A stretch of DNA of 64,000 nucleotides from an uncultured Parcubacteria group bacterium (GTDB taxonomy: Bacteria > Patescibacteriota > Patescibacteriia > UBA9934 > CAMTUG01), in NCBI GenBank assembly GCA_947084965.1, contig CAMTUG010000001.1, positions 345,293 to 409,292 on the forward strand, read 5' to 3'. Under the pieces are notes generated by a model, which was not told where the DNA came from, ran no database searches, and saw only the letters and a list, made by a program, of their open reading frames with translations. A program made the position numbers and the translations under genes. How positions within the stretch are numbered: position 1 is the first letter of the stretch; the number at the start of each line of letters is the position of its first letter. This document shows, piece by piece, positions 16,524 to 59,647 of this stretch.

Positions 16524-16543
16524 TCAAGAGGTATCCGATACGA

Positions 16544-16567: not shown

Positions 16568-16581
16568 TTCACGCAAAAAAT

Positions 16582-18312: not shown

Positions 18313-18313
18313 T

Positions 18314-20044: not shown

Positions 20045-20045
20045 T

Positions 20046-21785: not shown

Positions 21786-21786
21786 T

Positions 21787-23514
21787 ATGTCCAAAACTCC
21801 TCAGTACGAAGCAAGAGTAAAGGCAATTCTCGGCGGGCTCACGCCTGGCGAGCGGGTCTGTGCGATGACAGGGGAGAAGTGGATGATGGATGATGAGGAG
21901 ATCAGCTGGTATCGCAAATTTAACGTCCCACCGTCGCCGTTTTCGCCAAAGGCGCGTTTGTGGCACTTGGCTGCGAACGGCTGGAGCGCCTACCAGTGGT
22001 GGTGGAATAAGCATCCAGAAACTGGAGCGCCGGTGTTGTCCTATGTGCATCCAGCAAGTGGAATTAAGGTTTTGCCAGACAAGGAATGGTTTGCCAAAGA
22101 TTTCTCGAACGTGTTTTTAGAGCCAGCCGTGGAGCAGCCGTTTTTCGAACAATTCCGCACGCTTCAGGTACAGATTCCGGTCAACGCCACGCGCAATGTA
22201 AAGGAGCCTGAAAATTCAATCGCTACGGTCTCCGCGGGGGATGTAAATAGTTTTTTCGTCCAGGCTTCGCGCACCCGCGACTGCGTGTATACGATCGATT
22301 GCATGGATGCAGAAAATTGTGTGGAATGCAGTGGTTGTGAATCCATTCAGGAGTGTTATCGCGTCGGTCACTCTCAGCGGATGTTTCGTTGTGGATTTGC
22401 GAATGAGTGCATCGACTGTCAATCTTCGTCATTCATTTTTGATTGTCGCAATTGTGAGTTCTGCTTCGGCGCTTGCAATCAACGCAACAAAAAGTACTTG
22501 TGGTGGAATGAACAGTTGACCAAGGAAGAATGGGAAAAGCGCATCGCTGAGATTACACCGGGGAATCGTGGTTGGCTCGAGGCGCAGAAGGAACGCTATC
22601 TCAAGATGGTCGGATCAGAGGCGGTTTGGCCAGAGCATTTCAATTCGCAGAGCGAAGGTTCAATTGGCGAGTATTTGTTGCGTTGTGCTAATTGTCGTTA
22701 TAGCTTCTTTGGTCTTGATTCGCAGGATAATTACTACGCCTTCGGATTTTATAATGCGCGGAACAGCACGTTCTGTACTTCGATCGTCGGTGACAATAAT
22801 TATCAGTCGGGTACAAACGGCGAGTCTTCAAATACCAAGTTCTCGAATTCGCTCGTACGCTGTGATGACCTCGAGTACTCGTTCAATTGCTATGACTGCA
22901 CGCACTGTTTCGGCTGTGTCGGTTTGCGCCACAAAAAGTTTTGTATTTTGAACAAGCAATATACTGAAGCGGAGTACTGGAAAAAGGTGGATGAAATGAA
23001 GTGCGCCATGCTCGAACGAGGGGAGTATGGAAAACCAGTTCCTACAAAATATTCATTCTCTTACTTCCCGGAATCGGGCCCAGCGATGTATTTAGCGGCA
23101 AAACAGGAGGACTGGGATGCGGTCGGTATGCAGAAATTTGATGCCTCGGCTGAGGGGGCATTCGGTGCAGTGCGTGAAGGGGCACGTCCCGCCGCAGATG
23201 TGCCGGAGAATATTGATGATCTGGATCCTGCTGTTTGGTCAGGTGTGCCGATCGAGGACGCCGAAGAACATCGCCCGTTTACGCTTCTCGCCCCGGAAAT
23301 CGCTTTTTACAAAGAAAAGCGGATCGCCCCGCCCCGCACCCATTTTATCTCGCGAATGCGTGAGTTGATCTGGATGCAGAATACCGGCTTGTTTGAAAAG
23401 GCTACCTGTTCGGCCTGTAAGAAAGAGTTAACCGTCGCAGTGAATCGTACTTTCACAAAACGGAATCTTCACTGCTACGAATGCTACCTGAAGTATCTTT
23501 CACAAAGGGGATAG
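21787..23514 (+). CDS. Cys-rich paralog family protein, member 4 of 10
   Basis: MSKTPQYEARVKAILGG…FDCRNCEFCFGACNQRNKKYLWWNEQLTKEEWEKR…CSACKKELTVAVNRTFTKRNLHCYECY. Start at the conserved motif (tracked ORF begins at 21769). Confidence 0.7.
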   Translation: MSKTPQYEARVKAILGGLTPGERVCAMTGEKWMMDDEEISWYRKFNVPPSPFSPKARLWHLAANGWSAYQWWWNKHPETGAPVLSYVHPASGIKVLPDKEWFAKDFSNVFLEPAVEQPFFEQFRTLQVQIPVNATRNVKEPENSIATVSAGDVNSFFVQASRTRDCVYTIDCMDAENCVECSGCESIQECYRVGHSQRMFRCGFANECIDCQSSSFIFDCRNCEFCFGACNQRNKKYLWWNEQLTKEEWEKRIAEITPGNRGWLEAQKERYLKMVGSEAVWPEHFNSQSEGSIGEYLLRCANCRYSFFGLDSQDNYYAFGFYNARNSTFCTSIVGDNNYQSGTNGESSNTKFSNSLVRCDDLEYSFNCYDCTHCFGCVGLRHKKFCILNKQYTEAEYWKKVDEMKCAMLERGEYGKPVPTKYSFSYFPESGPAMYLAAKQEDWDAVGMQKFDASAEGAFGAVREGARPAADVPENIDDLDPAVWSGVPIEDAEEHRPFTLLAPEIAFYKEKRIAPPRTHFISRMRELIWMQNTGLFEKATCSACKKELTVAVNRTFTKRNLHCYECYLKYLSQRG

Positions 23515-23515
23515 T

Positions 23516-25249
23516 ATGTCACAGACACCAAACTTTGACGCGAAGATGAAGCAGATTCTCGAGGCCACACAACCGGGTGAGCGAGTTTGTGCACTGACAG
23601 GTCGTGCATGGAAAATGGATGAGGAAGAACTTGCTTGGTATCGGAGATTTAATGTGCCACCATCCAATCGGGAACCATTGGCCCGTACACAGCTGCGAGC
23701 AAGTTTTTGGACAGGGTATCAGTGGTGGAATCATAAGCATCCGATAACTGGCAAGACCCTTATTAGCAATATTCATCCGGCGACAGGAATTAAAGTTATT
23801 CCAGACAAGGAATGGCACGCGCAAGACTTTTCTGAAATCAACAGTGATTACAGCGTAGACCAGCCATTTTTCGATCAGCTTCGAGCGTTACAACTTCGAG
23901 TTCCGCATCCGGCCAGCAGAAATGTCGTTGAGCCAGAAAACTCTATCGCCACAATTTCAATGGGGGATCGTAACAGTTACTTCACCCTCGGTTGCACCTC
24001 CGAAAACTCTCTCTACAGTATTTGGGCAGCAAACTTGAGTAATTCTTCCGAGGTGAATTTTGCCGGGGTCATTAGTGATAGTTACAGCGTTAACAATGCC
24101 AAGAACGTCCATGGCTCACTTTTTGTACGTGAGAGTAAAGACGTTATCAAGTCCGCGTTTGTTTTTCTTTGTGATGACGTTGAATATTGTTTTGGTGCCA
24201 CGAATCAATCACACAAAAAGTTTATCTTCTTTAATAAGCAACTGACAGAAGATGAGTTTAAGGCAGAGATCACCAAGATTGATCTCTCCCGACGCGATCA
24301 ACTTCAAATGTACATAGGTCGTTTTCGCGATCTCGTGGGTAACCAAACGATCTGGCCAGAAACCTTGAGTAACCGTAACGTAAACGTGACAGGTGAGTAC
24401 AACTACGACTGCCGAGATCTGCAGAATTGTTACGGGTGTGTTGATAACTGTGCAAATTTGTTTTGGTGTAATTACGGAGTCGACGGTACGGACAGTGCTT
24501 TTTCTACACCTGTTCGCTCAACGGCGTGTTACGAAGGAGATAATACGTATAATTCGCACGACGTAAAGTTTTCGTATGCGACGTACCGTTGTCGGTCGAT
24601 GGAGTATTGCTTGATGAACTACGACTGCGAAGATTGTTTCGGGTGCGTCGGATTGCGCCACAAAAAGTTTCACATCTTTAACAAGCCTTATGAGGAAGCA
24701 GAGTATTGGAGGCGTGTCGACGAACTAAAGTGTGCGATGCTTGATCGTGGGGAGTATGGAAACTTCTTTCCGCTTTCTATGTCGACGGCCTACTTCGGGG
24801 AATCAGGTGGAGTGATGTATTACGACGCGGACCCTTCGTTAAACAAAACCTTTGGTGGATTGGAGTACGATCCAGAGTCTGCCGGGGCCATTGGGGACTT
24901 GGCCATGGCATCAGTCGTCAAAAAAACAACGGATATCCCAAACAGTATCGCTGATGTACAGGACGCGGATTGGGTTGGTGTACCTGTGATGGACGTTGTT
25001 CATAATCGACGTTTTGCTTTTTTGAAGCCGGAAATGGATTTTTATCGTCGAAAAAAGTTGGCACCACCTGCAGAACATTTCGTGTATCGCATCAAAAAGT
25101 TATCGTGGGAAGGCAACTTGGGTATTTTGGAAGAGCGGTCCTGTGCGAAGTGCGGAAAGAAGATACAGGTTGCTAAAAACCTCACATATCCAAATCGTCA
25201 GGTGTATTGCATGGACGATTACCTTCAATATCTTGAAGAAGCAACTTAG
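23516..25249 (+). CDS. Cys-rich paralog family protein, member 5 of 10
   Basis: MSQTPNFDAKMKQILEA…. The most diverged central region. Terminal CAKCGKKIQVAKNLTYPNRQVYCMDDY, with Cys replaced by Asp. Confidence 0.7.
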   Translation: MSQTPNFDAKMKQILEATQPGERVCALTGRAWKMDEEELAWYRRFNVPPSNREPLARTQLRASFWTGYQWWNHKHPITGKTLISNIHPATGIKVIPDKEWHAQDFSEINSDYSVDQPFFDQLRALQLRVPHPASRNVVEPENSIATISMGDRNSYFTLGCTSENSLYSIWAANLSNSSEVNFAGVISDSYSVNNAKNVHGSLFVRESKDVIKSAFVFLCDDVEYCFGATNQSHKKFIFFNKQLTEDEFKAEITKIDLSRRDQLQMYIGRFRDLVGNQTIWPETLSNRNVNVTGEYNYDCRDLQNCYGCVDNCANLFWCNYGVDGTDSAFSTPVRSTACYEGDNTYNSHDVKFSYATYRCRSMEYCLMNYDCEDCFGCVGLRHKKFHIFNKPYEEAEYWRRVDELKCAMLDRGEYGNFFPLSMSTAYFGESGGVMYYDADPSLNKTFGGLEYDPESAGAIGDLAMASVVKKTTDIPNSIADVQDADWVGVPVMDVVHNRRFAFLKPEMDFYRRKKLAPPAEHFVYRIKKLSWEGNLGILEERSCAKCGKKIQVAKNLTYPNRQVYCMDDYLQYLEEAT

Positions 25250-25250
25250 T

Positions 25251-26996
25251 ATGTCGCATACACCAAATTTTGACGCCAAGATCAACGCCATTCTCGATGC
25301 AATCCAAGCAGGCGAGCAAACCTGTGCATTGACTGGAGAGAAATGGATGCTGGATGAACTTGAATTAAACTTTTATCGCAAGTTTAGTTCTCCTCTATCT
25401 GTGTATTCTCCGCAAACGCGCATGAAGCTTCTCGGTGGGTTTCGGACGGGTTTTGAAATTTTTTGGAATAAGCATGCGAAGTCCGGGGAGCCGATCCTTA
25501 GTTATATTCACCCGGATAATCCAATTCCTGTTGTCACCGATGCGGATTGGCACGCCATGGATATCGGCGGCTTGCAGGAGTACCAACGCGAGATCGACCC
25601 TGCCCAACCATTTTTCGAGCAGTTTCGCAGCTTGGCACATGTGGTACCAATGGGCGCGCGCCGCGAATGGAAGAACGTCGTCAATACGGTCGGGGTTGGT
25701 ATGTGGGATATTGAAGATAGTTATCTTGTTTTTTCGACCGTTGGCGTGAAGCGCTGCATGTACACCTTTTACTGTCTTGAAGGATCAGAGGACATCACTC
25801 AGTCCGTGCATATCAATCACTCACAAAACTGCTTTGGATCAACGCAGATTACTCGTTGTCATTCATGTACTGTAGCGGTCATTAGCTTCGATTGCTTGAA
25901 GTGTGATTTCGTTTATGACTGTCGTAACTGTGAGTTTGTCTTTGGGGGAGCGAATTTGCGTAACAAAAAGTACGTCTGGTTCAACGAGCAATTGAGTAAG
26001 GACGAGTGGGAACGTCGTCGCGCGGCGGTCGATCTCTCCTGTCGTTCTGTGTTCAAGGAGTACCAACAGAAGTTCCTTCAACTTGTCGAACAGTCGGCCA
26101 CACCGGAACATTTTAATGTGAACGCGCCGGACTGTACGGGGGATTATCTTACGGACTGTGTGCGCTGCAAGGATTGCTATAGCTCGCAGCGGCTGACGGA
26201 TTGCGCCTATATGCATGGATCGACCGGGGCTGAAGGCAGTGCATTCTGTGTCGGGGCGTACCCAGCGACGCAGTCCTGGATGTGCAGCATGATCTCGAAT
26301 TCCAGCAATCTTAAATACTCCATGACCTGCGGGCGGAGCCAGAATCTCGAGTACTGCTTCAATTGTCATGATTGTGAAAACTGTTTCGGGTGTGACGGTC
26401 TGCGCAATCGTAAGTTTTGCATTGGGAACGTGCAGTACAGCGAGGACGAGTACTGGCGCCGTGTCGATGCGTTGAAGTGCGCCATGCTGGAACGGGGAGA
26501 ATACGGCCAGTTCTTTCCTCAGGATCTTTCGCCGACCGGCATGCAGTTTAGCCATTCGGCTATGTATTATCGGCTTTCAACCGCCGATGTGCAGGCTCTT
26601 GGGGCGCCGCTGTATGATCCGGATCAAGGCGTGGTGCTGGCTCCAAAGAAAACGGTTGAAGAACCTCCAAAAGATGCATCTGCGGCTCCAGACTGTTTGC
26701 GGGACGTTGATCCGGCCGTGTGGGTTAGTAAACCGTTCATGGACGAGCGGGTGCGTCGTCGCTGGAGTGTTGTGCCAAAAGAGTTCGCTTATTACACGGA
26801 TCGTCAGTTGCCATTTCCGGAAGAGCACTATTCTTCTCGGTTGCAAAAACAGATTCAGATGATGAACCAGCCGGCCTTTGAACAACTGCCGTGCGTGGTC
26901 TGTCAAAAGCCAGTGCAGGTCGGGCGCAACCCAGCATTTACAAAGCGTCGCGTGCATTGCATGAGTTGCTACCTGAAGTATTTGGAAGCACACTAG
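25251..26996 (+). CDS. Cys-rich paralog family protein, member 6 of 10
   Basis: MSHTPNFDAKINAILDA…YDCRNCEFVFGGANLRNKKYVWFNEQLSKDEWERRR…CVVCQKPVQVGRNPAFTKRRVHCMSCY. Start at the conserved motif (tracked ORF begins at 25143). Confidence 0.7.
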   Translation: MSHTPNFDAKINAILDAIQAGEQTCALTGEKWMLDELELNFYRKFSSPLSVYSPQTRMKLLGGFRTGFEIFWNKHAKSGEPILSYIHPDNPIPVVTDADWHAMDIGGLQEYQREIDPAQPFFEQFRSLAHVVPMGARREWKNVVNTVGVGMWDIEDSYLVFSTVGVKRCMYTFYCLEGSEDITQSVHINHSQNCFGSTQITRCHSCTVAVISFDCLKCDFVYDCRNCEFVFGGANLRNKKYVWFNEQLSKDEWERRRAAVDLSCRSVFKEYQQKFLQLVEQSATPEHFNVNAPDCTGDYLTDCVRCKDCYSSQRLTDCAYMHGSTGAEGSAFCVGAYPATQSWMCSMISNSSNLKYSMTCGRSQNLEYCFNCHDCENCFGCDGLRNRKFCIGNVQYSEDEYWRRVDALKCAMLERGEYGQFFPQDLSPTGMQFSHSAMYYRLSTADVQALGAPLYDPDQGVVLAPKKTVEEPPKDASAAPDCLRDVDPAVWVSKPFMDERVRRRWSVVPKEFAYYTDRQLPFPEEHYSSRLQKQIQMMNQPAFEQLPCVVCQKPVQVGRNPAFTKRRVHCMSCYLKYLEAH

Positions 26997-26997
26997 T

Positions 26998-28683
26998 ATG
27001 TCGCATACGCCAAACTTTGACGCCAAGATCAACGCTGTCATCGACGCTTTGCCTGCGGGTAAGGACGCGGAGATCTGTCGCAAGTTTCGTGTCCCGCCAA
27101 TTAAAATGGATCCAACCGAGCAGTTGGATCTTCTAACCGGATTTAACACCGGAATGGCTTTTTTTTGGAAGCCGCACATGAAGACCGGTGTGCCACTGCT
27201 TTCGGCAATTCACCCAGATACCCCGATTCCTGTCGTCACCGAAGAGGAGTGGGTGGAGATGGATGCAACGACATTTGGTCAAGAGATTGATCTGGCACAG
27301 CCGGTGTTTGATCAACTCTGGGGATTAGTGACACGTGTCCCGCATAATCCGACGCGTAACTTGAATTGCACACAATCGGTCGCGGTTGGAACGATTAATG
27401 CTAATGATTGTTATTGCGTTTCTGCCTCGTATATTGTGAACCGCTGTTTATATGGATACGCCATGCTCAACGGGGAAGACTGTATCGATTCCGGCAATGG
27501 GATGAACGTCGCCCGTTCGTATCAATCCGGCGGAAGTAACGACATCAGTGATTGCCAGTATGTTTATGAATCAAAAGGGTGTTTGAACTCTTCGTTCTTA
27601 TTTGATTGCTGGAACTGCGAATTTTGTTTCGGAGCCACGAACCAGCGTAACAAACGGTTTCTCTTTTTTAATGAACAGTTAGACGAGGCGGAGTACAAAA
27701 AACGCCTTGCCGAGATTGATCTCTCCGATGCCTCGGTCGCTAACGTGTACATTAAGCGCTTTATGGCCTTATGGAGGGCGGAAGGTGTCTGGCCAGAGGC
27801 GTTTGGCTACGGAAATACCGAGGCGGAAGGGGAACACGTCTTCGGTTGTGTGCGTTGTCAGGAATGTTTCTGGCAGAACATGTCTGTTGACTGTTATCGT
27901 TGTCGTCTGGGTGCGAGCAACAGTGGTTGTGCGTACACATCAGGGGCCGGTTCCCAGCAGGATAGTTACATGACGACCGGAGGTACGTTCGGATCAGGAA
28001 ACAAGTTTTGCGTTGGTGCAACCAAATGCATTGGCTGTGAGTATTGTTTTAATTGTCGTGAGTGCGAGAACTGCTTTGGATGCGTTGGATTACAGCACAA
28101 GAAGTTTTGTATTTTTAACAAACAGTATACGGAGGAAGAATACTGGCGTCGTTTGGATGAACTTAAGTGTCAGATGTTAGAAGCAGAAGAGTACGGGTCG
28201 TTTTTCCCAGCCAAGTTTTCACCGTGTGGATTGCAGTTTTCCGCCGGGGAGATTTATGTTGGATACAGCGCTGAGCGTCTGAAGCAGTACGGGGCGCCGT
28301 ATCTTGATCCAAAACGCGGGCAGGTCTTTGCCCCACATCCGCAGGAGCTACAGCCGATTGAAGCTGACAGCTTACCGCTTCGTTTAGATGATGTTGATTC
28401 ATCGCTGTTCGTGGGAAAAGCTATTCATGATCCAGAATGCGATCGTCTTTTTACGATTCTCCCCTCTGAATTTGAAACGTATAAGGCGAAGCGTTGGCCC
28501 CTACCACGAAGGCACTTTACGACGCGGCTGATTGAGCTCGTCCGTCGCTCTAACTCGCCTATGCCAAAAGATGCTGAATGCGCTGCGTGTCATGTGGCGA
28601 TCACTACCTATCGTAACTTCACCTTTCCAGAACGGACGGTCTATTGTCGTTCATGTTACTTGAAGTTTTTGGAGACGCGCTAA
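26998..28683 (+). CDS. Cys-rich paralog family protein, member 7 of 10 (N-terminally truncated variant)
   Basis: MSHTPNFDAKINAVIDALPAGKDAEICRKFRVPP…. Lacks the GERVCxxTGEKW…WYKKFNVPP segment found in the other members. The rest of the family signature is intact. Confidence 0.65.
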   Translation: MSHTPNFDAKINAVIDALPAGKDAEICRKFRVPPIKMDPTEQLDLLTGFNTGMAFFWKPHMKTGVPLLSAIHPDTPIPVVTEEEWVEMDATTFGQEIDLAQPVFDQLWGLVTRVPHNPTRNLNCTQSVAVGTINANDCYCVSASYIVNRCLYGYAMLNGEDCIDSGNGMNVARSYQSGGSNDISDCQYVYESKGCLNSSFLFDCWNCEFCFGATNQRNKRFLFFNEQLDEAEYKKRLAEIDLSDASVANVYIKRFMALWRAEGVWPEAFGYGNTEAEGEHVFGCVRCQECFWQNMSVDCYRCRLGASNSGCAYTSGAGSQQDSYMTTGGTFGSGNKFCVGATKCIGCEYCFNCRECENCFGCVGLQHKKFCIFNKQYTEEEYWRRLDELKCQMLEAEEYGSFFPAKFSPCGLQFSAGEIYVGYSAERLKQYGAPYLDPKRGQVFAPHPQELQPIEADSLPLRLDDVDSSLFVGKAIHDPECDRLFTILPSEFETYKAKRWPLPRRHFTTRLIELVRRSNSPMPKDAECAACHVAITTYRNFTFPERTVYCRSCYLKFLETR

Positions 28684-28684
28684 T

Positions 28685-30415
28685 ATGTCGCATACACCAA
28701 ATTTTGATAGCAAATTACAAGCTCTTCTCGACGCCACCACGCCGGGTGAGCGCGTTTGTCGCATCTCTGACGAACGCTGGCTGCTCACGCCAGAGGAGAT
28801 CGATCGCTGTCGCGCTTGGGGTGTGCCTCCAAGCCCATACGCCCCAACAATGCGCCTCAAGCTGCTCGCTGCCTCAGCTGCGGGAGTTGATCTGTGGTGG
28901 CGTCCGCACGCTTTGACCCAAAAACCGATCCTTTCTTCTAGTGATCCGGACGCCCTTGCGCCCGTGGTGACAGACGATGAATGGTATACGCTCGATGATG
29001 GTTCTGCTCACGGCTTTTCTGCCGACGCGGAGCGTCCATTTTTTGAACAGTATGTTAAACTGATCCCGCTCATTCCGATGCAGGCGAACTACTCAACCGG
29101 ATCAGAAAACTGCATTGGGGGTGGTTTTGAAAAGTGCGTTAACGGATTCATGATATTCGGGTCGTTCACTTTGCAGGATTGCTGGTACACCTTTCGCAGT
29201 AAATCGGATGAGCGCTGTATGGATGTGGCATTCGTCGCTTACTCGCAGGACTGTTTTTCTTGCTGCATGGCCGACCGTTTGCACGGATGCACGCAGGTCT
29301 TTGATTCTCTTGATTGTATCAACTCACAATTCCTCTTTGACGCCCGCGACTGCGAATCCTGCTTCTGCTCGACCAACCTGCGTCGCCGCAAGTATGTTTT
29401 CATGAACGAACAGCTGACCAAAGACGAATATGAACGCCGGATGAGCGAGATCGATCTCGGCTGCTCGTCTGTCTTTGCAAAGTGGAAAGAGATCTTTCAT
29501 CAACTGCTTGCGACACAAGCGGTCTGGCCAGAGGCCTTTAGTATCAACTCGCCTGGGTGCGTTGGGGATTATCTATTGAATTGCCTGGATAGCTCGGGGT
29601 GGTACATGGATGATGCCCGCGACGTGCGAGGAGGATGGATGGTCTTCGGACAGTCCAGCCATTCGGAGGCGATCGTTGTGGCTCGCTCGGCGCAAGATGC
29701 GTACATGTCCGCTGGCGTCCTCGGAAGTCAGAATGTGAAGTTCTCGCTGGTGTCCAAGGACTCGACGGCGCTTGAGTATTGCAATAACTGTCGCGATTGC
29801 GAGAACTGCTTTGGCTGTCATTCGCTCCGCAGTAAAAAGTTTCATATCTTTAACAAGCCGTACAGCGAAGAGGAGTATTGGAAGACCATTGATGCCCTGA
29901 AGTGCGCCATGCTCGATCGTGGCGAGTACGGCCAGTGGTTTCCGCCGGTTGTTAGCAACTGGCGACCAGAAACGGGGTTCGCCTCTATTGTTTCGCCGCT
30001 GACGGATGTGGAGATCGCGCGTCTTGGTCTTACACCGTTCGATCCGAAGTCGGCGATGCGCTTTGCTCCGGCGAACAATCAAGCGGTCGGTAACTTGGCG
30101 GAAGTGCCAGACTGCATCGATCAGGTTGGTGCTGAATGGGCGAACGTGCCGTTTGACGATGTTTCTCAAGCTCGCCGGTTCAATGTGAGCTCACGCGAAG
30201 TTGAATTTCGCAAAGAGCGTCGTTATCCGTTTCCAAAATCGCATTACCGCGCTCGGCTGACCGAGCTTGTACGCCAGATCAACGGACCGGAAACGGAAAG
30301 CCGCCCCTGCGCCAAATGCCAGAAGGCGATGACAGTGAATAAAAATCAGATGTTCCCAGACCGTACGATCTATTGCATGGACTGTTTTTACACGTTCATC
30401 GAAAGTCGTGGTTAA
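28685..30415 (+). CDS. Cys-rich paralog family protein, member 8 of 10
   Basis: MSHTPNFDSKLQALLDATTPGERVCRISDERW…CAKCQKAMTVNKNQMFPDRTIYCMDCF. Confidence 0.7.
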   Translation: MSHTPNFDSKLQALLDATTPGERVCRISDERWLLTPEEIDRCRAWGVPPSPYAPTMRLKLLAASAAGVDLWWRPHALTQKPILSSSDPDALAPVVTDDEWYTLDDGSAHGFSADAERPFFEQYVKLIPLIPMQANYSTGSENCIGGGFEKCVNGFMIFGSFTLQDCWYTFRSKSDERCMDVAFVAYSQDCFSCCMADRLHGCTQVFDSLDCINSQFLFDARDCESCFCSTNLRRRKYVFMNEQLTKDEYERRMSEIDLGCSSVFAKWKEIFHQLLATQAVWPEAFSINSPGCVGDYLLNCLDSSGWYMDDARDVRGGWMVFGQSSHSEAIVVARSAQDAYMSAGVLGSQNVKFSLVSKDSTALEYCNNCRDCENCFGCHSLRSKKFHIFNKPYSEEEYWKTIDALKCAMLDRGEYGQWFPPVVSNWRPETGFASIVSPLTDVEIARLGLTPFDPKSAMRFAPANNQAVGNLAEVPDCIDQVGAEWANVPFDDVSQARRFNVSSREVEFRKERRYPFPKSHYRARLTELVRQINGPETESRPCAKCQKAMTVNKNQMFPDRTIYCMDCFYTFIESRG

Positions 30416-30416
30416 T

Positions 30417-32144
30417 ATGTCCAACACGCCCAACTACAACGCCAAAGTGAAGGCGATTCTCGAGGCGACAACGCCTGGGGAGCGGGTTTGTGCGTTAACG
30501 GGTGAGAAATGGATGCTGACAGATGAAGAGATCGGCTGGCTCAAAAAATTCCAGGTTCCGCCACATCCGTGGGCGCCGATCATGCGTTTGAAACAGATGA
30601 TGGGATTTCCGACTGGAATCGCCATCTGGCGCAAGCCCCACGCAGACACAGGGGAGCCGATCTTATCGTTCGTTCACCCAGACAATCCGTTCAAGGTGAT
30701 TACGGACAAAGAATGGTTTGCTCGAGACTTTGCGCAATCAACCAAAGAACTTGATCCTGACCGGCCGGTGTTCCCGCAACTGCAGGCACTAGCACAAGCA
30801 ACGCCTGTGGGCGCCCTGCGCGACGATGGAAGTAATATCAATTGCGTCGGCGTAGATATTATTGACGGCCAAGATTGCTACATGTTTTTTGGTGGCTACG
30901 GTAACAAACGCAGCATGTACGGTGCGGTTAGTTACGAATCTGAAGACGCTTGCCTGCTCACCAACACCAAGGGTATTCAGCGCTCCTACATGATCAATGC
31001 CTGTTCGGACCTGCATGGTTGTCGTTACTGTTTTCAAAATGGCAAGTTGATAAACTGCACTTTTTGTTTCGATTGTGACAATCTCGAATTTTGTTTTGGC
31101 GCATCAAATCAAAGTCACAAAAAGTATCTCTTCTGGAATGAACAGTTAACGAAAGAAGAGTGGGAACGTCGTGTTAGTGAAGTCGATCTTTCCGATCGTG
31201 GGGTTTGGGAAGCGCAGGTCAGGCGGTTTCATCAAATGGTTTGCGAAGAGGCGTACTGGCGTGCGGATTTTAACCTTGAGCCGCTCGAGGATAGCACTGG
31301 GGAATACTTGTTAAATTCGACCCGCCTGCACGATTGTTACTGGCAGGATGGCGGCACGGATCTCTATCGTTCTTGGATCGGGGTGGAGTCGCGCGAAAGT
31401 GCCTTTGTCGTTTGGTCCGGTTGGGGAGATGCGGCTTACATGTGCACAGATATTTTGAAGCATCATAATATCAAAATGTGCATGCGCGTCTGGCGTTCAC
31501 AAAACTTGGAATACTGTATCGATTGTTTTGACTGCGAGGACTGTTTTGGTTGTGTGGGCCTGCAACGCAAATCGTTCTGTATCTATAACAAACAGTACAG
31601 CGAAGCCGACTATTGGCAGAGGGTTGATGCCCTGAAGTGTGCCATGCTGGACCGTGGGGAGTACGGACAGTTTTTCCCCGCGCAGTTTTCTCAGGTCGGT
31701 TATGCCTATTCCATGGGGGAGTTGTACTTGGGCTACACACCGGAAGAATTGTCCCTTTTTGGAGCGCTGGAGTTTGATTCAACAAAGGGGAACGTGCATA
31801 CGGTCGATGGCACGCTCAAGGTAACGGATTTGCCGGACCGCCTGATAGACACCATTCCGGAGCAGCACGTGGGCAAGCCGATCCTCGACACCGCTCTCGG
31901 GCGACCGTTTACGATCACACCGACAGAGTTCGCCTTTTATCAGTCGCACGGGCTTCCTCTCCCACGCGAACACTTTTTGTCGCGAATGACGACCCTCTTC
32001 CGTCACGCCAACGGCCCAATCCCTGAACAGGCTCCGTGCGCCAAGTGCGGCACAAACGTGACAACGTGGAAAAACGCGCTCTTCTCCGGTCGCCGTCGTG
32101 TACTATGCAGGCCGTGTTATTTGCAGTATTTTGAGACACGATAA
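30417..32144 (+). CDS. Cys-rich paralog family protein, member 9 of 10
   Basis: MSNTPNYNAKVKAILEATTPGERVCALTGEKWMLTDEEIGW…CAKCGTNVTTWKNALFSGRRRVLCRPCY. Start at the conserved motif (tracked ORF begins at 30408). Confidence 0.7.
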   Translation: MSNTPNYNAKVKAILEATTPGERVCALTGEKWMLTDEEIGWLKKFQVPPHPWAPIMRLKQMMGFPTGIAIWRKPHADTGEPILSFVHPDNPFKVITDKEWFARDFAQSTKELDPDRPVFPQLQALAQATPVGALRDDGSNINCVGVDIIDGQDCYMFFGGYGNKRSMYGAVSYESEDACLLTNTKGIQRSYMINACSDLHGCRYCFQNGKLINCTFCFDCDNLEFCFGASNQSHKKYLFWNEQLTKEEWERRVSEVDLSDRGVWEAQVRRFHQMVCEEAYWRADFNLEPLEDSTGEYLLNSTRLHDCYWQDGGTDLYRSWIGVESRESAFVVWSGWGDAAYMCTDILKHHNIKMCMRVWRSQNLEYCIDCFDCEDCFGCVGLQRKSFCIYNKQYSEADYWQRVDALKCAMLDRGEYGQFFPAQFSQVGYAYSMGELYLGYTPEELSLFGALEFDSTKGNVHTVDGTLKVTDLPDRLIDTIPEQHVGKPILDTALGRPFTITPTEFAFYQSHGLPLPREHFLSRMTTLFRHANGPIPEQAPCAKCGTNVTTWKNALFSGRRRVLCRPCYLQYFETR

Positions 32145-32146
32145 GT

Positions 32147-33883
32147 ATGTCCAATACCCCGAATTTTGATCTGAAAGTGAAAGCAATTCTCGACGCCACT
32201 ACGGCTGGCGAGCGTGTTGATCGTTTGACGGGAGAGGCGTGGATGTTAACGGACACGGAGATCGATTGGTGTAAGAAGTTCAATGTACCACCAGCGACGG
32301 TCAGTCCAGAAACGCGCTGGAAGCACCATGGCGTTTGGTATGTTGGGTATCAGTATTGGTACCAATCGCATCCAGAAACGAGGAAGCCGATTATCTGCAC
32401 CGTCCATCCGGCGACAGGAATCAAAGTACTTCCAGACAAAGAATGGTTTGAAAAAGATTTTCTCTCCCACGGCCGCGAGTACCAACTCGACCGTCCATTT
32501 TTTGAGCAGTGGCGCGAACTGCAGCTTGCTGTACCGATGCCAGCCAGTCGCAATCATGTTGAGCCGGTCAATTCAATCGCCTTTGTATCGCAAGGTGATG
32601 AGGATAGCTATTTTGTCGGTGCTTCGAAAACAAAACGCACCTATTATGCTCATGCCGCCATGGATGTTGAAGATTGCGCAGAGGTATATGAATCCTCGAA
32701 GTTGCAGGAGTGTTTTAATGTCGCCGACTCTTCGCGTTTGCATCGGTGTTCATTTGTACGTGCGAGCTACGATTGTCTGAACTCCAGCTTCTTGTTTGAC
32801 TGCCGCAACTGTGAATTCTGTTTTGGTGCGACCAACAAGCGCAACAAGAAGTATCTGTGGTGGAACGAACAGTTAACGAAGGAGGAGTGGGAAAAACGAC
32901 GAGCGGAAGTTGATCTTGGGTCGCGTGCTGTTGTCAGTGAGCAGATGCAAAGATTCCGTACGTTCGTGCGCGAACGGGCCGTTTGGCCAGAAAATTTTAA
33001 CGATCATGCGATCGACTCGACAGGAGAGTATTTGTTCAAAACAACGCGGGTGATGGACTCCTATCTTTGCGGCGAAGGAGCGATAGACCAGTACTTCTGC
33101 AATTTTAGTTTCGGTCAGTCTGAGAACAATGCCTTTACAGGCTATCCCGTGAACGGAAGCGATATGTATTCTTGCGCCTCGATTTCCGGTCGGCGTCAGA
33201 AGTTTTGTTTTTTGACGATTCGTTCGGAGAATATGGAGTACTGCATGCTCTGTTATAATTGCACGGACTGCTTCGGGTGCATCGGGCTTCAACGCAAGCA
33301 GTTCTGCATTTTCAATAAACAATACACAGAGGAAGAGTATTGGAAGCGTGTAGATGCGCTCAGGTGCACTATGCTTGATCGCGGCGAGTATGGAGAGTTT
33401 TATCCAGCCGGGTTTTCACCGAGCTATCCGGGGGATTCGGGGGCGATGTATTGGTTTGGAGCGACCAAGGAAGAGTTGAAAAAGATGGGAGTGATGGAAT
33501 TTGAACCGGAATCCCTGGGAGCGATCGGGGAGGAATTGGCGGATCCTTCTAAAATGAGAAACGTGAGTGAGCTCCCGGATTATGTACGTGATCTCACCGA
33601 CGATTGGATCGGTGTGCCGTTGTTTGATCCGGTGGCAAACCGTCGCTTCGCTATGATTCGTCCAGAAGTTGAGTTTTACCGTCGGATGAACGTCGCTCCG
33701 CCGACCAAGCATTTCACTGCTCGGTTAAAGGATCTGTGGGTGGAGGTTAATCAAGGGAGCTTTATGGAAACTACCTGCACTGCTTGCGGAAAAGCGTTAC
33801 GCGTTGCCAAGAACGCAGGACACCCCGAACGGAAGATCCTTTGTATTGAGGACTATCTCAAATTCATCGAGCAACACGGATAA
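32147..33883 (+). CDS. Cys-rich paralog family protein, member 10 of 10
   Basis: MSNTPNFDLKVKAILDATTAGERVDRLTGEAW…FDCRNCEFCFGATNKRNKKYLWWNEQLTKEEWEKRR…CTACGKALRVAKNAGHPERKILCIEDY, with Cys replaced by Asp. Confidence 0.7.
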   Translation: MSNTPNFDLKVKAILDATTAGERVDRLTGEAWMLTDTEIDWCKKFNVPPATVSPETRWKHHGVWYVGYQYWYQSHPETRKPIICTVHPATGIKVLPDKEWFEKDFLSHGREYQLDRPFFEQWRELQLAVPMPASRNHVEPVNSIAFVSQGDEDSYFVGASKTKRTYYAHAAMDVEDCAEVYESSKLQECFNVADSSRLHRCSFVRASYDCLNSSFLFDCRNCEFCFGATNKRNKKYLWWNEQLTKEEWEKRRAEVDLGSRAVVSEQMQRFRTFVRERAVWPENFNDHAIDSTGEYLFKTTRVMDSYLCGEGAIDQYFCNFSFGQSENNAFTGYPVNGSDMYSCASISGRRQKFCFLTIRSENMEYCMLCYNCTDCFGCIGLQRKQFCIFNKQYTEEEYWKRVDALRCTMLDRGEYGEFYPAGFSPSYPGDSGAMYWFGATKEELKKMGVMEFEPESLGAIGEELADPSKMRNVSELPDYVRDLTDDWIGVPLFDPVANRRFAMIRPEVEFYRRMNVAPPTKHFTARLKDLWVEVNQGSFMETTCTACGKALRVAKNAGHPERKILCIEDYLKFIEQHG

Positions 33884-42784: not shown

Positions 42785-43207
42785 ATGCACAAACGTCTAA
42801 GAATTTATACAGACGGCGGTTCTCGCGGAAATCCAGGTCCTGCCGGACTTGGCGTTGCTATTCATGCTGTGCATACCGATGGGAGTGAAGGTGAAACGAT
42901 CGCCACGGTACACGAATATCTCGGGAAAACAACCAATAATCAGGCGGAGTACATGGCGATCATTCGTGGGCTTGAAAAAGCCAAGGCTCTCGGCGCAGAC
43001 GAGGTCGAGATGTTGATGGATTCGGAACTCGCCGTTAAACAATTGAATGGCCAGTACCGCGTAAAAAATCCGGAACTGGGTAAGCGATTTATGGAGGTGC
43101 ATAACTTGCGCCAGCAGTTTTCCAAAGTCACCTTCCGACACATCCGGCGCGAGAAGAACACCGAAGCCGATGCATTGGCGAATGCGGCGATGGACGAGGG
43201 TCATTAG
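42785..43207 (+). CDS. rnhA: ribonuclease HI
   Basis: RIYTDGGSRGNPGPAG…NNQAEYMA…DSELAV…; the catalytic D/E/D/D pattern is present. Confidence 0.8.
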   Translation: MHKRLRIYTDGGSRGNPGPAGLGVAIHAVHTDGSEGETIATVHEYLGKTTNNQAEYMAIIRGLEKAKALGADEVEMLMDSELAVKQLNGQYRVKNPELGKRFMEVHNLRQQFSKVTFRHIRREKNTEADALANAAMDEGH

Positions 43208-43213
43208 AGCCCA

Positions 43214-43314
43214 GACGGCGGAGGTGCGAGCTGACGAGTTCTCTTTTCGCGCGCAGCCCTTATACCGTCCGCAAGGGGTCGAGCACGAAAAGAGTGTCAG
43301 CGAGACCGAGTACG
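43214..43314 (+). repeat. copy 1 of a ~100-nt conserved structured intergenic element (conserved arms, variable central loop)
   Basis: Near-identical to 59534..59632 apart from a 12-14-nt loop and two point differences. Contains an inverted repeat CTCTTTTCG…CGAAAAGAG. Confidence 0.6.
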
Positions 43315-43370
43315 ACTGGGCTTAAGTGAATCTCCGCCGGTTACACAAGCTGTGCTATACTATTCCCACT

Positions 43371-44471
43371 ATGTCCCTTTTTGGTAAATCGAAATCACAA
43401 TCCTTTCTCGGGATCGATGTTGGTGTTCATGGCATGAAGCTCGTCGAAATGCAGAACGAACACGGTCGTGCCAAGCTGATGACCTATGCCTACTCCGAGC
43501 GAGGACTCGAAGAGCAGTCAAAATCGCTCCTCGATAATCCGCAAGTCGCGGCCAATTTACTTTCAACAATCGTAAAAAAGAGCGGAGCCACGACAACGCG
43601 TGCAGTCAGCGGTCTGCCCCAGAACGCCGTCTTTTCTGCGATCGTCACCGTGCCGAAACTGAAAGATCCGCGCCAGATGAAACCGCTGATCGAGGGTCAG
43701 GTGGCAAAGCTCACTCCGATCCCGGTCACAGAGATGATTTTAGACTCCAAGGTTATTGATGAAGAGAAGTTAAAAACGCCAGAAGAAAAGAAGGAGGAGA
43801 AAAAGGCCCCGCCTGTTGATCCAAAGAAAGGGGAGCTAGTACGTGTATTAGTCACAGGCGCGGCTAAAACACTCGTTCAGAAGTATGTGGAAGTGTTTAA
43901 ACTCGCCAAGATCGAGCTTGTTGCGCTAGAAACGGAATCCTTCGCCTTAATTCGTGCGCTTGTTGGTCGTGACCGTTCAACGATTCTTATTATCGACATG
44001 GGGGCGATGCGCACCAACATGACGATCGTCGAACGTGGAATCCCTATTTTTACTCGTTCGGTCAACGTTGGTGGCGGCCAGCTGACGAAGACGATCGCGG
44101 AGCAGATGGGTATTTCGTTGGCGGATGCGGAGCAGATGAAAGTCGATCTTTCCAAGGGCCAGGTGGACGGAGTCCCCCCGCAAGTGGAATTGATCCTGCA
44201 GCCGATTCTGACCGAAATTAATTACTCGTTCGGTGAGTTTAAGCGTTTAGAAGCAGACAGTGCTAAGCGCGTGGAGAAGATTATCATTACAGGGGGGTCA
44301 GCAAATTTGCCAGGGATGGTGACGTATCTTTCGCAAAAGTTAAACATCAATACCTACGTCGGTGATCCCTGGGCACGCGTTCAATTGCCACAGGCACTGC
44401 GCCCTGTTCTCGATGAGATCGGTCCTCGCTTTGCCGTATCGATCGGTCTGGCGATGCGGGACATGGAATGA
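43371..44471 (+). CDS. pilM: type IV pilus assembly protein PilM
   Basis: MSLFGKSKSQSFLGIDVGVHGMKLVE… actin-like ATPase fold. Followed by a receiver-like gene and a pilin gene. Confidence 0.75.
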   Translation: MSLFGKSKSQSFLGIDVGVHGMKLVEMQNEHGRAKLMTYAYSERGLEEQSKSLLDNPQVAANLLSTIVKKSGATTTRAVSGLPQNAVFSAIVTVPKLKDPRQMKPLIEGQVAKLTPIPVTEMILDSKVIDEEKLKTPEEKKEEKKAPPVDPKKGELVRVLVTGAAKTLVQKYVEVFKLAKIELVALETESFALIRALVGRDRSTILIIDMGAMRTNMTIVERGIPIFTRSVNVGGGQLTKTIAEQMGISLADAEQMKVDLSKGQVDGVPPQVELILQPILTEINYSFGEFKRLEADSAKRVEKIIITGGSANLPGMVTYLSQKLNINTYVGDPWARVQLPQALRPVLDEIGPRFAVSIGLAMRDME

Positions 44472-47327: not shown

Positions 47328-49847
47328 ATGCCCCTTGAGGTGCAATCAGGAGGAGTGGATTCAGCAACGATCGTCATGATCGCCGTCTTAGTGTTGTGGC
47401 CAGCCGCCCTGGCGATCGTCGTTTTTGCTGTGCGCTGGGCCGCCCGTCAGTTTTTGCACCGTCACGGCAAGACGTTTAAGATGGTTACCCTGTTGGTAAC
47501 GTTGCCAAAGTTTCGTCGTGAGGAAGAGACCAAAGAGGATTCTACAGCACAGAAGGTGCAGGAAGATATTTCGGTAGACGAAACATTTTTCGCGGCGATT
47601 GCTGGATTGCACGCCCAACGCGGGGTGATGCCCTGGTTGCTCGGCCGTTCGGATAATTATGCGTTCGAAATCGTTGCTCACGAAAAGGTGATCAAGTTTT
47701 ACGTGACCGTGCCACGGCGTTATCAGGAGTTTGTTGAGCAGCAGATCACTGCCCAGCATCCAGATGCGTTCGTCGAAGAGGTTGAAGATTACAACATCTT
47801 CAGTCCAACCGGAACGATCCTCGGTGGATATTTGCAGCAGGCCCGCGAAACATTTTTTCCGATCAAGACATTTCGTAAACTTGAAACCGATCCACTGAAT
47901 GCGATCACCAACGCCTTGTCAAAAGTTCCAGAAACGGACGGCGTAGCCATTCAGTATATGGTCCGGCCGGCCACGCCGGGTTGGCGCAAGCAGGGCGCTA
48001 AGGTGGGAAAGAACATGTTGAAAGGGATGACGTTGCGCGAAGCGATGAAGGGCCATAAAAAAGGATCAAGCTGGGTTTCTCTTCTTTCTGGTAAGAAATC
48101 GGAGCAGGCCGAACAAAAGTCCGGCTCCTATTACATGACCCAGACCGAGCAGGACATGACCAAGAATATTGAAGAGAAGATCAGTAAAGGCGGACTTGAG
48201 GTCAATATTCGCGTCGTCGTTTCGGCGAAAGGCCCTGAAGAGGCGCATGATTTACTAAAGGATGTCATGAGCGCCTACGCCCAGTACAACATCTTCGAAT
48301 ACGGAAACGCCCTCGAGAAGTTTATTCCGCTGCGCAAAAAGCACTTGATTAAGAAGTTCATCTACCGCGGGTTTGATGAAACGCGTACCTGTGTGTTCAA
48401 TACCGAAGAGATGGCCTCGCTTTTCCATTTGCCGTTGAAAACAACAGAAACGCCAAACATTCAATGGCTGACCGCACGCACCGCTCCGGTTCCAGCCCAA
48501 GTACCTCAGCGGGTGCCAGAAGATGCCGACCTGCTCCTTGGCTATAACGTCTATCGCGGTCGTAAAATCAACGTGGCGATTAAACGGCCGGATCGTCAGC
48601 GCCACATGTACATCATCGGTAAATCTGGTTCCGGTAAAACGGTCTTCATCCAAACGTTGGCCTTGCAAGATATTATGCGCGGGGAAGGGGTTTGTGTTCT
48701 TGATCCGCACGGAGACATGATCGAATGGCTACTCGGTCACATTCCGAAGAGCCGGATTGACGACGTCGTTTTGTTCGATCCTTCAGACCTTGATCGCCCG
48801 GTCGGATTAAACATGCTGGAAGTCAACCAGGAATCGCAGCAGGACATGGCGACGTCGGAGATGATCTCGATCTTTTACAAGCTTTTCCCGCCAGAAATGA
48901 TCGGGCCGATGTTTGAACACCACATGCGCAACGTGATGTTGACCTTGATGGCCGATCCGGGCAATCAGGGGACGATCGCAGAAATTCCGCGCATGTTTAG
49001 CGATAATGATTTTCAAAAGGCCTGGGTGGCTAAAGTGAAGAATCCGGTCGTGCGGTCGTATTGGGAAAACGAAGTAGCCAAGACGAGCGATTTTCATAAA
49101 TCAGAAATGCTCGGCTATTTGATCTCCAAAGTTGGTCGCTTTGTGGAAGACACGATGATGCGCAACATCATCGGTCAACAGAAGTCCGGATTCAACTTCC
49201 GCGAGATCATGGATAAGAAAAAGATTTTGCTCGTTAACCTAGCCAAAGGAAAGACAGGCGAAGTCAACTCGTCCCTTCTGGGGATGATTATCGTTTCCAA
49301 GTTACAGATGGCCGCCTTGGCGCGTGCGGATATGCCAGAAGAAGAGCGGAGTGATTTTTACTTATACATTGACGAGTTCCAAAACTTTATTACTGATTCG
49401 ATCTCGACGATTCTGTCTGAGGCGCGTAAGTATCGCTTGAACTTGATCGTCGGCCACCAGTACATGGGCCAGCTGGTCAAGGATGGGAAGACGGACATCC
49501 GTGATGCGATTCTCGGGAACGTCGGTTCAACGTTCGTCTCGCGTATCGGGCCTGAAGACGCGGAAACGCTCGAAAAGTTGTATTCGCCGACTTTTGCTGG
49601 ATACGATCTGATCAACTCAGATAAGTATACGTGGTATGCGAAGCTAATCGTTGATAATACCCAAGTAAAGCCGTTTACGTTAAAGACCTTCCCCCCACCA
49701 AAGACCGATCCCAAGTTGGCTGCGGCTATTAAGCAGTTGGCCCGCTTGAAGTACGGTCGTGATCGCGCGATCGTCGAGGCAGAGATTCTTGAGCGCTCGT
49801 CGATCAAGGCGCAAGTGGTGACCGGGACGGGCGAACGAGGCGTATAA
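47328..49847 (+). CDS. VirD4/TraD/TrwB-like coupling-protein-family ATPase, fused form (membrane N-domain + P-loop ATPase in one 839-aa protein)
   Basis: N-terminal TM plus a region homologous to 11360..13084. C-terminal YIIGKSGSGKT, DPHGDM, YLYIDEFQNF, LIVGHQYM homologous to 13086..15065. No zinc-ribbon tail. Confidence 0.75.
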   Translation: MPLEVQSGGVDSATIVMIAVLVLWPAALAIVVFAVRWAARQFLHRHGKTFKMVTLLVTLPKFRREEETKEDSTAQKVQEDISVDETFFAAIAGLHAQRGVMPWLLGRSDNYAFEIVAHEKVIKFYVTVPRRYQEFVEQQITAQHPDAFVEEVEDYNIFSPTGTILGGYLQQARETFFPIKTFRKLETDPLNAITNALSKVPETDGVAIQYMVRPATPGWRKQGAKVGKNMLKGMTLREAMKGHKKGSSWVSLLSGKKSEQAEQKSGSYYMTQTEQDMTKNIEEKISKGGLEVNIRVVVSAKGPEEAHDLLKDVMSAYAQYNIFEYGNALEKFIPLRKKHLIKKFIYRGFDETRTCVFNTEEMASLFHLPLKTTETPNIQWLTARTAPVPAQVPQRVPEDADLLLGYNVYRGRKINVAIKRPDRQRHMYIIGKSGSGKTVFIQTLALQDIMRGEGVCVLDPHGDMIEWLLGHIPKSRIDDVVLFDPSDLDRPVGLNMLEVNQESQQDMATSEMISIFYKLFPPEMIGPMFEHHMRNVMLTLMADPGNQGTIAEIPRMFSDNDFQKAWVAKVKNPVVRSYWENEVAKTSDFHKSEMLGYLISKVGRFVEDTMMRNIIGQQKSGFNFREIMDKKKILLVNLAKGKTGEVNSSLLGMIIVSKLQMAALARADMPEEERSDFYLYIDEFQNFITDSISTILSEARKYRLNLIVGHQYMGQLVKDGKTDIRDAILGNVGSTFVSRIGPEDAETLEKLYSPTFAGYDLINSDKYTWYAKLIVDNTQVKPFTLKTFPPPKTDPKLAAAIKQLARLKYGRDRAIVEAEILERSSIKAQVVTGTGERGV

Positions 49848-55167: not shown

Positions 55168-55241
55168 TCCGGGATCGTCTAACGGCAGGACAGCGGACTC
55201 TGAATCCGCTAATCATGGTTCGAATCCATGTCCCGGAACCA
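55168..55241 (+). tRNA. tRNA-Gln (anticodon CTG), CCA encoded
   Basis: Acceptor stem TCCGGGA/TCCCGGA (7 bp), anticodon stem GCGGA/TCCGC with loop CTCTGAA, T-arm CATGG-TTCGAAT-CCATG, discriminator A plus CCA. Confidence 0.85.
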
Positions 55242-55246
55242 GAAAA

Positions 55247-55272
55247 AATCTCAGCAGTTGCTGAGGTTTTTT
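55247..55272 (+). terminator. intrinsic terminator after the tRNA (CTCAGCA-gt-TGCTGAG + GTTTTTTC)
   Basis: 7-bp stem followed by a T6 run. Confidence 0.5.
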
Positions 55273-55392
55273 CTTGTCATGAATGAAAACGAAGAGCCGC
55301 ACCTGCCAGGGGCGACCTTCGTGCGTCCGAGAGTGGCTCGGAAGCGGGTCGCAGGCAGGCGCGGCGGTGGGGCCCCGAGGAGTCGGAGGGGC

Positions 55393-59294: not shown

Positions 59295-59519
59295 ATGGTG
59301 GAGAATCTTTCGTACGATCGCGAGTTGGTCTGGTCCGAAATTGTGGAACGCGCCCGGGAACAGGCGGTCACCAGCCAAGAAGCATTTCATGAACTGGTCG
59401 ACGACTATTTTATGGAGCGGCTCGAGGTTGGCGAACTTGATGAAGATCAGAACGTGCAGGAACTGGCGGCAGAAATCAAAGGACGCTGGGAGGATTTTAA
59501 GATCGATCTCGGTATCTAG
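59295..59519 (+). CDS. hypothetical small acidic protein
   Basis: 74 aa. The tracked 152-aa ORF overlaps the previous gene; start chosen at MVENLSY. Confidence 0.3.
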   Translation: MVENLSYDRELVWSEIVERAREQAVTSQEAFHELVDDYFMERLEVGELDEDQNVQELAAEIKGRWEDFKIDLGI

Positions 59520-59533
59520 CCGAAACTTGTCGT

Positions 59534-59632
59534 GACGGCGGAGGTTCGAGCTGACGAGTTCTCTTTTCGCGCGCAGCCCTTATCCTTTCTTCGGGGTCGA
59601 GCACGAAAAGAGTGTCCGCGAGACCGAGTACG
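59534..59632 (+). repeat. copy 2 of the ~100-nt conserved structured intergenic element
   Basis: See 43214..43314. Lies 15 nt upstream of the MBL-fold gene ATG. Confidence 0.6.
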
Positions 59633-59647
59633 GCACGACTAAACTTT

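Follow-up and report, generated by a model that had tools for sequence, protein, structure and literature searches.

The window analysed here, a stretch of 64 kb of DNA, carries two near-identical copies of a hairpin-forming intergenic element of about 115 nt, which is composed of a core and of the closing stem that surrounds it. The host is one Uhrbacteria-like Patescibacteria genome; the neighbouring proteins assign the window to Patescibacteria, near Candidatus Uhrbacteria. The two copies probably belong to a family of small, non-coding, palindromic dispersed repeats that is young and lineage-specific, mobile DNA of the MITE/ERIC/Correia kind that would be selfish or nearly neutral. Genomes of Patescibacteria are of small size and densely packed, so a hairpin repeat that spread recently in one of them, landing in the last codons of a gene or in the first bases behind it, would imply that reduced genomes still host active non-autonomous elements. 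Our literature search on structured RNAs or MITEs of Patescibacteria found no paper on such repeats.

Two copies of one element between operon genes

The core of copy 1 occupies positions 43215-43314 (100 nt) and the core of copy 2 positions 59535-59632 (98 nt), both on the + strand. When the copies were aligned together with their flanks, the flanks proved unrelated and the cores near-identical, with 86 of the 88 arm positions (98%) in agreement. The original prediction of two near-identical copies of ~100 nt was thereby borne out; the starts that it gave, 43214 and 59534, were each one base too early. Apart from the apical loop, two positions distinguish the cores, one in the 47-nt left arm (43226 G, 59546 T) and one in the 41-nt right arm (43299 A, 59617 C), and a third difference between the copies follows just beyond the core (43315 A, 59633 G). 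Variation had been predicted to be restricted to the terminal loop, which is not so, given the two arm differences and closing stems that also differ. The apical loops themselves are dissimilar, ATACCGTCCGCA of 12 nt in copy 1 (43262-43273, + strand) and ATCCTTTCTT of 10 nt in copy 2 (59582-59591, + strand). Their 2-nt difference in length rules out a conserved reading frame, and the element is non-coding. Significant matches to the loop sequences were sought elsewhere in the window and none was found, hence a guide-like role is unsupported. The internal complementarity that had been pointed out earlier is real, both for CTCTTTTCG/CGAAAAGAG and for the CCC/GGG pairs, and each copy contains a perfect 9-bp stem, CUCUUUUCG/CGAAAAGAG, at 43241-43249/43286-43294 in copy 1 and at 59561-59569/59604-59612 in copy 2 (+ strand in both). 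The core does not end in inverted repeats, its termini being ACGGCGGAGG and, for the 3' end written as its reverse complement, CGTACTCGGT. Patterns of 22-29 nt derived from the arms and allowed up to 3 mismatches matched the window at these two sites only, the expectation from shuffled sequences being 0.

At copy 1, CGGCGGAG at the 5' end of the core (43216-43223) is complementary to CTCCGCCG at 43331-43338, which starts 9 nt past the closing stem. The two segments may form an alternative pairing, for which copy 2 has no equivalent and which may be due to chance.

Both copies lie in sense orientation relative to the genes around them. Copy 1 follows the RNase H gene rnhA (PF00075/PF13456; stop codon TAG at 43205-43207) and precedes the PilM gene (PF11104; ATG at 43371), and copy 2 is placed between a small ORF (stop codon TAG at 59517-59519) and the gene of an MBL/beta-CASP/RMMBL nuclease (ATG at 59648). 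This gene context agrees with the original prediction and was confirmed by the Pfam domains and by a homologue of the small ORF, a 70-aa gene found at the equivalent place in the relative L133, which indicates that the small ORF is real. Spacers in the 64-kb window are mostly shorter than 50 nt. Since the ATG follows copy 2 at a distance of 16 nt, too short for a promoter to fit in between, we infer that the element is co-transcribed with its flanking genes.

Ahead of pilM, downstream of the insertion and outside the element, an extended -10-like signal was observed, TGcTATACT followed by 9 nt and the pilM ATG (43353-43373, + strand). The arrangement TGnTATACT-N9-ATG is kept in the window and in four relatives, with sites at 2867-2883 in L142, 9984-10003 in L143 and 3703-3722 in L145, and in L143, L144 and L145 the TG of the motif derives from the rnhA stop codon. 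This pattern suggests an extended -10 promoter that would give a nearly leaderless pilM mRNA.

Empty sites in related genomes

The nearest other genomes share 64-72% protein identity and the same gene order with the window, and all comparisons of presence and absence are between species, not strains. The order recJ-rnhA-pilM is conserved in the relatives, where the rnhA-pilM spacer measures 15 nt (L143, L144 and L145), 16 nt (L140) or 31 nt (L142), compared with 163 nt in the window. At the nuclease locus, L132 and L135 leave annotated gaps of just 3 and 2 nt, respectively, between the nuclease gene and the one that abuts it upstream; this upstream gene is a different one there and the small ORF is missing. 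Only L133 among the relatives has a homologous small ORF, which overlaps the nuclease gene as annotated; with the nuclease start placed at the counterpart of the window's ATG, the L133 spacer would be about 10 nt long (TCGTACGACG), compared with 128 nt in the window. Because the spacers of the syntenic relatives are short (~3-31 nt) and devoid of the element, both copies are, by this synteny, lineage-specific insertions. Their arrival would have rewritten the rnhA stop codon and separated genes that abut or nearly abut in the relatives. Analogous repeats were not found in the loci of the relatives, and a search for related loci by PilM returned one real relative, with 45% identity.

The same empty sites bear on the idea that the element is native to its place, as an intrinsic terminator or as an ancestral regulatory leader for the genes downstream. 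Its position directly after stop codons and its stable hairpin would suit such a function. Nevertheless, the relatives manage without it, their spacers measuring about 3-31 nt, and neither copy runs into a U-tract (with tails that read UUAAGUGAAU and UAAACUUUAU) or was picked up by terminator scans. Moreover, the downstream genes are mutually unrelated, and canonical terminators with a hairpin and a T-run exist elsewhere in the genome, for instance at 55238-55277. We regard a terminator or leader as very improbable.

In the region 55168-55277, a tRNA (62 bits) is followed by the canonical bidirectional terminator of hairpin and T-run just mentioned (55238-55277); the organism thus uses ordinary intrinsic terminators.

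Closing stems and flanking repeats

Each core is enclosed by a perfect inverted repeat of 6-7 bp, the sequence of which differs between the copies. At copy 1, AGCCCAG (43208-43214, + strand) pairs perfectly with CTGGGCT (43316-43322, + strand), after which TAAGTGA runs to 43329; with a one-base bulge allowed, the 5' strand extends to 43204 (TTAG) and overlaps the rnhA stop codon TAG at 43205-43207. At copy 2, GTCGTG (59529-59534, + strand) faces CACGAC (59634-59639, + strand), which is followed by T, AAACTT, T and the nuclease ATG at 59648. Between the copies, 3 of 6 pairs of the closing stem are changed on both sides, which amounts to three compensatory pairs; as 58 of 500 shuffles reach the observed values and only two sequences are compared, these changes are not statistically meaningful.

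A possible source of the closing stem was recognized at copy 1. The RNase H of the window stops three residues short of its relatives, ending with ...DEGH-stop, and the C-terminus of the relatives reads ...D-E/K/D-G/A-L-G/A-N/K-S/T-stop. The sequence CTGGGCTTAAGTGA, located directly after the core of copy 1, matches the L143 sequence CTCGGCAAAACGTGA, which encodes L-G-K-T-stop, at 11 of 15 aligned columns. The score of 10 after gap penalty corresponds to an empirical p of about 0.005, meaning that 0.5% of all 14-mers of the window score as high against the rnhA tails of the relatives. Positions 43316-43329 (CTGGGCT and TAAGTGA) accordingly resemble the last rnhA codons and the stop of the relatives, L-G-x-S/T-TGA. 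Given this match with the missing tail, the 3' closing strand of copy 1 is probably the displaced end of rnhA, and copy 1 suggests that the closing stem is built from the target flank. Copy 2 is ambiguous in this respect. The L133 spacer TCGTACGACG contains ACGAC, like the 3' closing strand CACGAC, whereas the direct repeat AAACTT just outside the closing stem on both sides (59523-59528 and 59641-59646, + strand) is a candidate target-site duplication and resembles a conventional one. A comparable direct repeat was sought around copy 1 and nothing convincing was found, TTAG/TAAG being the best. The probability of a chance origin is roughly 0.005 for each of the two clues, the rnhA tail and AAACTT, and they point to different models.

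One of these models is a conventional MITE that depends on a DDE transposase gene located elsewhere in the genome, with the closing stem as its terminal inverted repeat, AAACTT as the target-site duplication and the stem differences as a mark of subfamilies. The layout of copy 2, AAACTT-GTCGTG-core-CACGAC-T-AAACTT, is what such an element would leave behind, and the size, the non-coding nature and the insertion polymorphism fit it as well. In addition, the AAACTT repeat, present at copy 2 only, favours conventional duplication over fold-back. The outer repeats, however, are not common to both copies (AGCCCAG/CTGGGCT and GTCGTG/CACGAC) and differ at 3 of 6 positions while the cores differ by ~2%, the direct repeat has no counterpart at copy 1, what borders copy 1 on the right resembles rnhA coding sequence that has been displaced, and no transposase is near. 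Neither the 64-kb window nor ~13 kb of extra flank encodes a transposase, an integrase or a reverse transcriptase. A conventional MITE therefore seems to us rather unlikely.

Returning to the mobile palindromic repeat that builds its closing stem at the target, the following course of events can be proposed. The ~100-nt core would enter tightly packed operons at the extreme 3' ends of their genes and in the orientation of these genes, moving either via a single-stranded hairpin intermediate or by insertion and subsequent template switching. The folded-back strand would be extended on the neighbouring target sequence, which would yield a perfect closing stem different at every locus; self-primed synthesis and a template switch would each leave the core identical and the closing stem locus-specific. 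In the case of copy 1, the displaced rnhA end would make up the 3' closing strand, with the insertion supplying the new stop codon, and the 5' strand (TTAG-AGCCCAG, the complement of CTGGGCT-TAA with one bulge) would be new sequence mirroring the target flank. After insertion, the element would be transcribed within the operon mRNA and would fold into a long irregular hairpin, which could serve as a processing or stability site. Should more copies confirm them, locus-specific closing stems would indicate an unusual insertion chemistry.

Possible further copies

A covariance model was built from the two copies and run on the window with and without filters; it detected no other copy in the window, in about 140 kb of the relatives' loci or in about 13 kb of extra flank that belongs to the host genome itself. 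Pattern scans of viral contigs gave chance matches alone, the exact-pattern scan of genome contigs with GGAGGTNCGAGCTGACGAGTT gave 0 matches and a two-anchor pattern gave 7 chance matches in metagenome contigs, none of them homologous. A blastn search with a distant setting against phages and plasmids returned nothing relevant. Furthermore, the concatenated six-frame translation of both copies, a search aimed at spurious ORFs called over other copies, had no match at E<=10 in a set of 5.8 billion proteins. As far as the searched collections show, the family appears private to one lineage.

The contigs of the source sample tell more about copy number. Logan contigs (k=31) assembled from ERR3478686 agree with the window in every base, yet they stop inside the element, one ending at 43245, one starting at 43287 and one starting at 59587. 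The 30-mers common to copies 1 and 2 are confined to 43227-43263 and 59547-59583, hence these two copies cannot account for the three ends, each of which needs a further sequence. The shared 30-mer required for the end at 43245 is 43216-43245 with the copy 1 base at 43226, that for the start at 43287 is 43287-43316 with the copy 1 base at 43299, and that for the start at 59587 is 59587-59616, which includes the last six bases of the copy 2 loop; in each case, further sequence of the sample must diverge from the window at the next base. The simplest reading of these graph break points is that the source sample holds at least one more copy, which would combine the arm variants of copy 1 with a loop end like that of copy 2 and with yet another closing stem. 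The additional copies by which the original prediction proposed to check itself were not found in the pattern scans of genomes and metagenomes, and at least one is implied by the Logan contig ends. A practical consequence is that the element breaks up short-read assemblies of this organism.

Several findings weigh against a mobile repeat family. Two copies are seen directly and the further copy is deduced from contig ends, the copies share no terminal inverted repeats, and spread is seen in one genome, the element having been found in no other genome, metagenome or viral contigs. Regarding the earlier description of the element as a structured RNA or a small MITE-like repeat, the repeat and its insertion are upheld by the empty syntenic spacers and the contig breaks; a selected RNA structure is a less probable alternative.

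Predicted fold and possible function as RNA

Folded with its flanks as RNA, the + strand is predicted to form one long irregular hairpin, with a minimum free energy of -56.1 kcal/mol (z = -5.1) for copy 1 and of -45.5 kcal/mol (z = -1.6, barely better than shuffles) for copy 2. The - strand folds less well (-52.9 and -40.6 kcal/mol, respectively), and DNA folding parameters rank the strands as the RNA parameters do. The consensus fold of the two copies comprises 37 pairs, with C-A, G-A and A-C mismatches in the upper stem, a bulge of four nucleotides (AGUU), a CGAG/CGAG site predicted to give tandem G-A pairs (43227-43230/43301-43304 in copy 1, + strand) and a second near-copy of this site, CG(G)AG/CGAG. 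Four G-U pairs are found on the + strand, corresponding to C-A mismatches on the opposite strand, as against two on the - strand. The string CGAG occurs 5 times per core, compared with 0.43 expected per 100 nt, and CUCG 0 times. All inner helices are identical between the copies; the core difference at 43299 (A to C) breaks a pair, U-A becoming U-C at 43232/43299. In the loop region, 43271-43274 (the last three bases of the copy 1 loop and the next A) read GCAA, a GNRA-type tetraloop motif with C and G flanking it, and 59590-59593 (the last two bases of the copy 2 loop and CG) read UUCG as RNA, a UNCG-type tetraloop motif also flanked by C and G. A tip closed by such a tetraloop was not among the low-energy folds and is energetically uncompetitive.

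Several features, namely the sense orientation, the G-U pairs, the tandem G-A sites, the GCAA and UUCG motifs and the folding of the + strand, lean to a role at the RNA level. The element could accordingly be a selected cis-acting structured RNA, that is a new small self-cleaving ribozyme, a processing site for RNase III or another nuclease, or a protein-binding hairpin; the hairpin would then uncouple operon neighbours, the core being constrained and the closing stem and apical loop free to vary. We give this explanation, in all its parts, a small but real chance. It draws on the sense orientation of both copies within operons, on the preference for the + strand in G-U pairs and folding energy, on the three compensatory pairs of the closing stem, on the excess of CGAG with its tandem G-A sites, and on otherwise unrelated loops that end with C-GCAA-G and C-UUCG-G, two classic types of stable tetraloop. 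On the other hand, none of the relatives examined has the element at the corresponding junctions and none of the collections searched contains it, so that conservation ends with one genome, and the identical inner helices fit recent copying, not long-term constraint. Moreover, of the two differences between the cores one disrupts a pair, the tetraloop-closed alternative is missing from the low-energy folds, the fold of copy 2 barely beats shuffles and no Rfam match exists.

Both lines of thought could in principle be combined, in that a mobile structured core would build its own closing helix from its insertion-site neighbour by fold-back priming on a single-stranded intermediate and its transcript would be an active RNA, for instance a new motif that cleaves itself or recruits a nuclease, that cuts operon mRNAs apart. 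This strikes us as a long shot; if true, a reduced Patescibacteria genome would harbour a new style of transposition that is joined to a function at the RNA level.

Known RNA classes were searched for with Rfam 15. At the gathering threshold, the whole window gave one tRNA and nothing at either copy. At E<=10, the 231-251 nt around each copy gave no match for copy 1; the four found for copy 2 were weak and due to chance, with a plant-virus pseudoknot on the opposite strand scoring highest (19 bits). A match to a known terminator or REP class, which according to the original prediction would have spoken against it, was not found, and neither did the scan for small ribozymes that it had called for bring a match at E<=10; the models covered hammerhead (types I-III, HH9 and HH10), twister, twister-sister, pistol, hatchet, HDV and hairpin ribozymes. 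The earlier remark on a resemblance to the hammerhead goes back to the strings CUGACGAG (43231-43238) and CGAAA (43286-43290), which are indeed present. However, the proposed stem II, GUUCUC/GAGCAC, runs into a U-C mismatch after two pairs and competes with the perfect 9-bp stem. Reading the strand with CUGACGA and GAAA fixed, we found no complement of AAGAG for stem III and no complement of the sequence 5' of CUGA for stem I, and no three-stem junction can be drawn. Hence a hammerhead, or any other known class of self-cleaving ribozyme, has next to no probability as an explanation of the element.

Other features of the window

About ten paralogous genes of roughly 540-620 aa are arranged head to tail at 16462-33883, with a period of 1.73 kb, 60-79% DNA identity and 1-nt spacers; Pfam gives a weak treble-clef zinc-finger match alone. 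The array lies just downstream of a gene for a TrwB/TraG-like ATPase (13065-15065). This gene and a second TrwB/TraG/HerA-like coupling-protein paralog (47328-49847) share diverged DNA repeats, located around 13775-13898, 15721-15929 and 49042-49250, and a Logan contig ends at 48628, within the second of the two genes.

A 395-nt intergenic region contains a promoter-like TTGACA-17-TATTCT (6077-6105) and, about 125 nt downstream of it, a G+C-rich hairpin (6232-6252) with a T-rich tail. The segment 6077-6262 looks like an unannotated small RNA gene, for which it is a candidate; Rfam gave no match to it at E<=1. After the putative small RNA follows a perfect 18-bp inverted repeat, 6265-6282/6372-6389 (CGGACTTTGCAAAATTTG/CAAATTTTGCAAAGTCCG), that encloses 89 nt. 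The whole of 6265-6389 may be a second MITE-like unit, unrelated to the hairpin repeat and present in a single copy in the window.

Comparison with known systems

Some known systems were considered and rejected. REP/BIME elements, which are associated with a RAYT gene, are palindromes of 20-40 nt with a conserved GTAG head and a high copy number; the element described here has ~115 nt and no GTAG head, occurs twice in 64 kb and is accompanied by no Y1 transposase. It resembles integron attC sites in being an imperfect palindrome placed immediately behind ORFs, with bulged bases, a terminal loop that varies and sites that are near-identical within one chromosome. Unlike in attC, its flanking genes are syntenic housekeeping genes, the core sites RYYYAAC/GTTRRRY are absent at both ends, and there is neither a cassette array nor an integrase. 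A retron msr/msd was rejected as there is no reverse transcriptase, a TIGR array as the element is solitary and not tandem, and riboswitches and SRP, 6S and Y RNA were likewise dismissed. With the hammerhead (Rfam clan CL00010), the element has the short strings CUGAnGA and GAAA in common, but here these go with no three-stem junction and no model match.

Classical bacterial MITEs such as RUP, Bcr1 and Nezha are defined by shared terminal inverted repeats and by a target duplication of fixed length. The element is like them in its small size (~115 nt), its non-coding and non-autonomous nature, its near-identical copies and its insertion polymorphism, that is presence or absence at orthologous sites between species. 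It is unlike them in that no terminal inverted repeats are common to its copies and no duplication of fixed length was found, AAACTT flanking copy 2 and nothing convincing flanking copy 1. Closing stems of the kind seen here look like products of quasi-palindrome template switching or of self-primed hairpin extension, in which the opposite arm or the flank of a hairpin is copied and perfectly complementary sequence arises. Such events are mutational and are not known to form part of a transposition pathway; the link to the element is suggested by one locus, copy 1.

The closest parallels are offered by the ERIC/IRU elements of enterobacteria and the Correia elements (NEMIS/CREE) of Neisseria. 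They are non-coding imperfect palindromes of ~100-150 bp, sit in transcribed intergenic spacers and 3' UTRs, are co-transcribed with their neighbours and fold into long hairpins. Between related strains they are present or absent at a given locus, they reach tens to hundreds of copies with sequence-conserved termini, and Correia elements have a TA duplication. Our element differs from both in that two copies were seen and at least one was inferred, in the variation of the outermost stem, in the lack of a consistent duplication and in its reduced Patescibacteria host. By analogy, it would nevertheless work like ERIC, Correia and MITE elements even though it has neither the shared terminal repeats nor the consistent duplication of a MITE, and, like ERIC and Correia, it is a non-coding intergenic palindrome absent from the corresponding loci in relatives.
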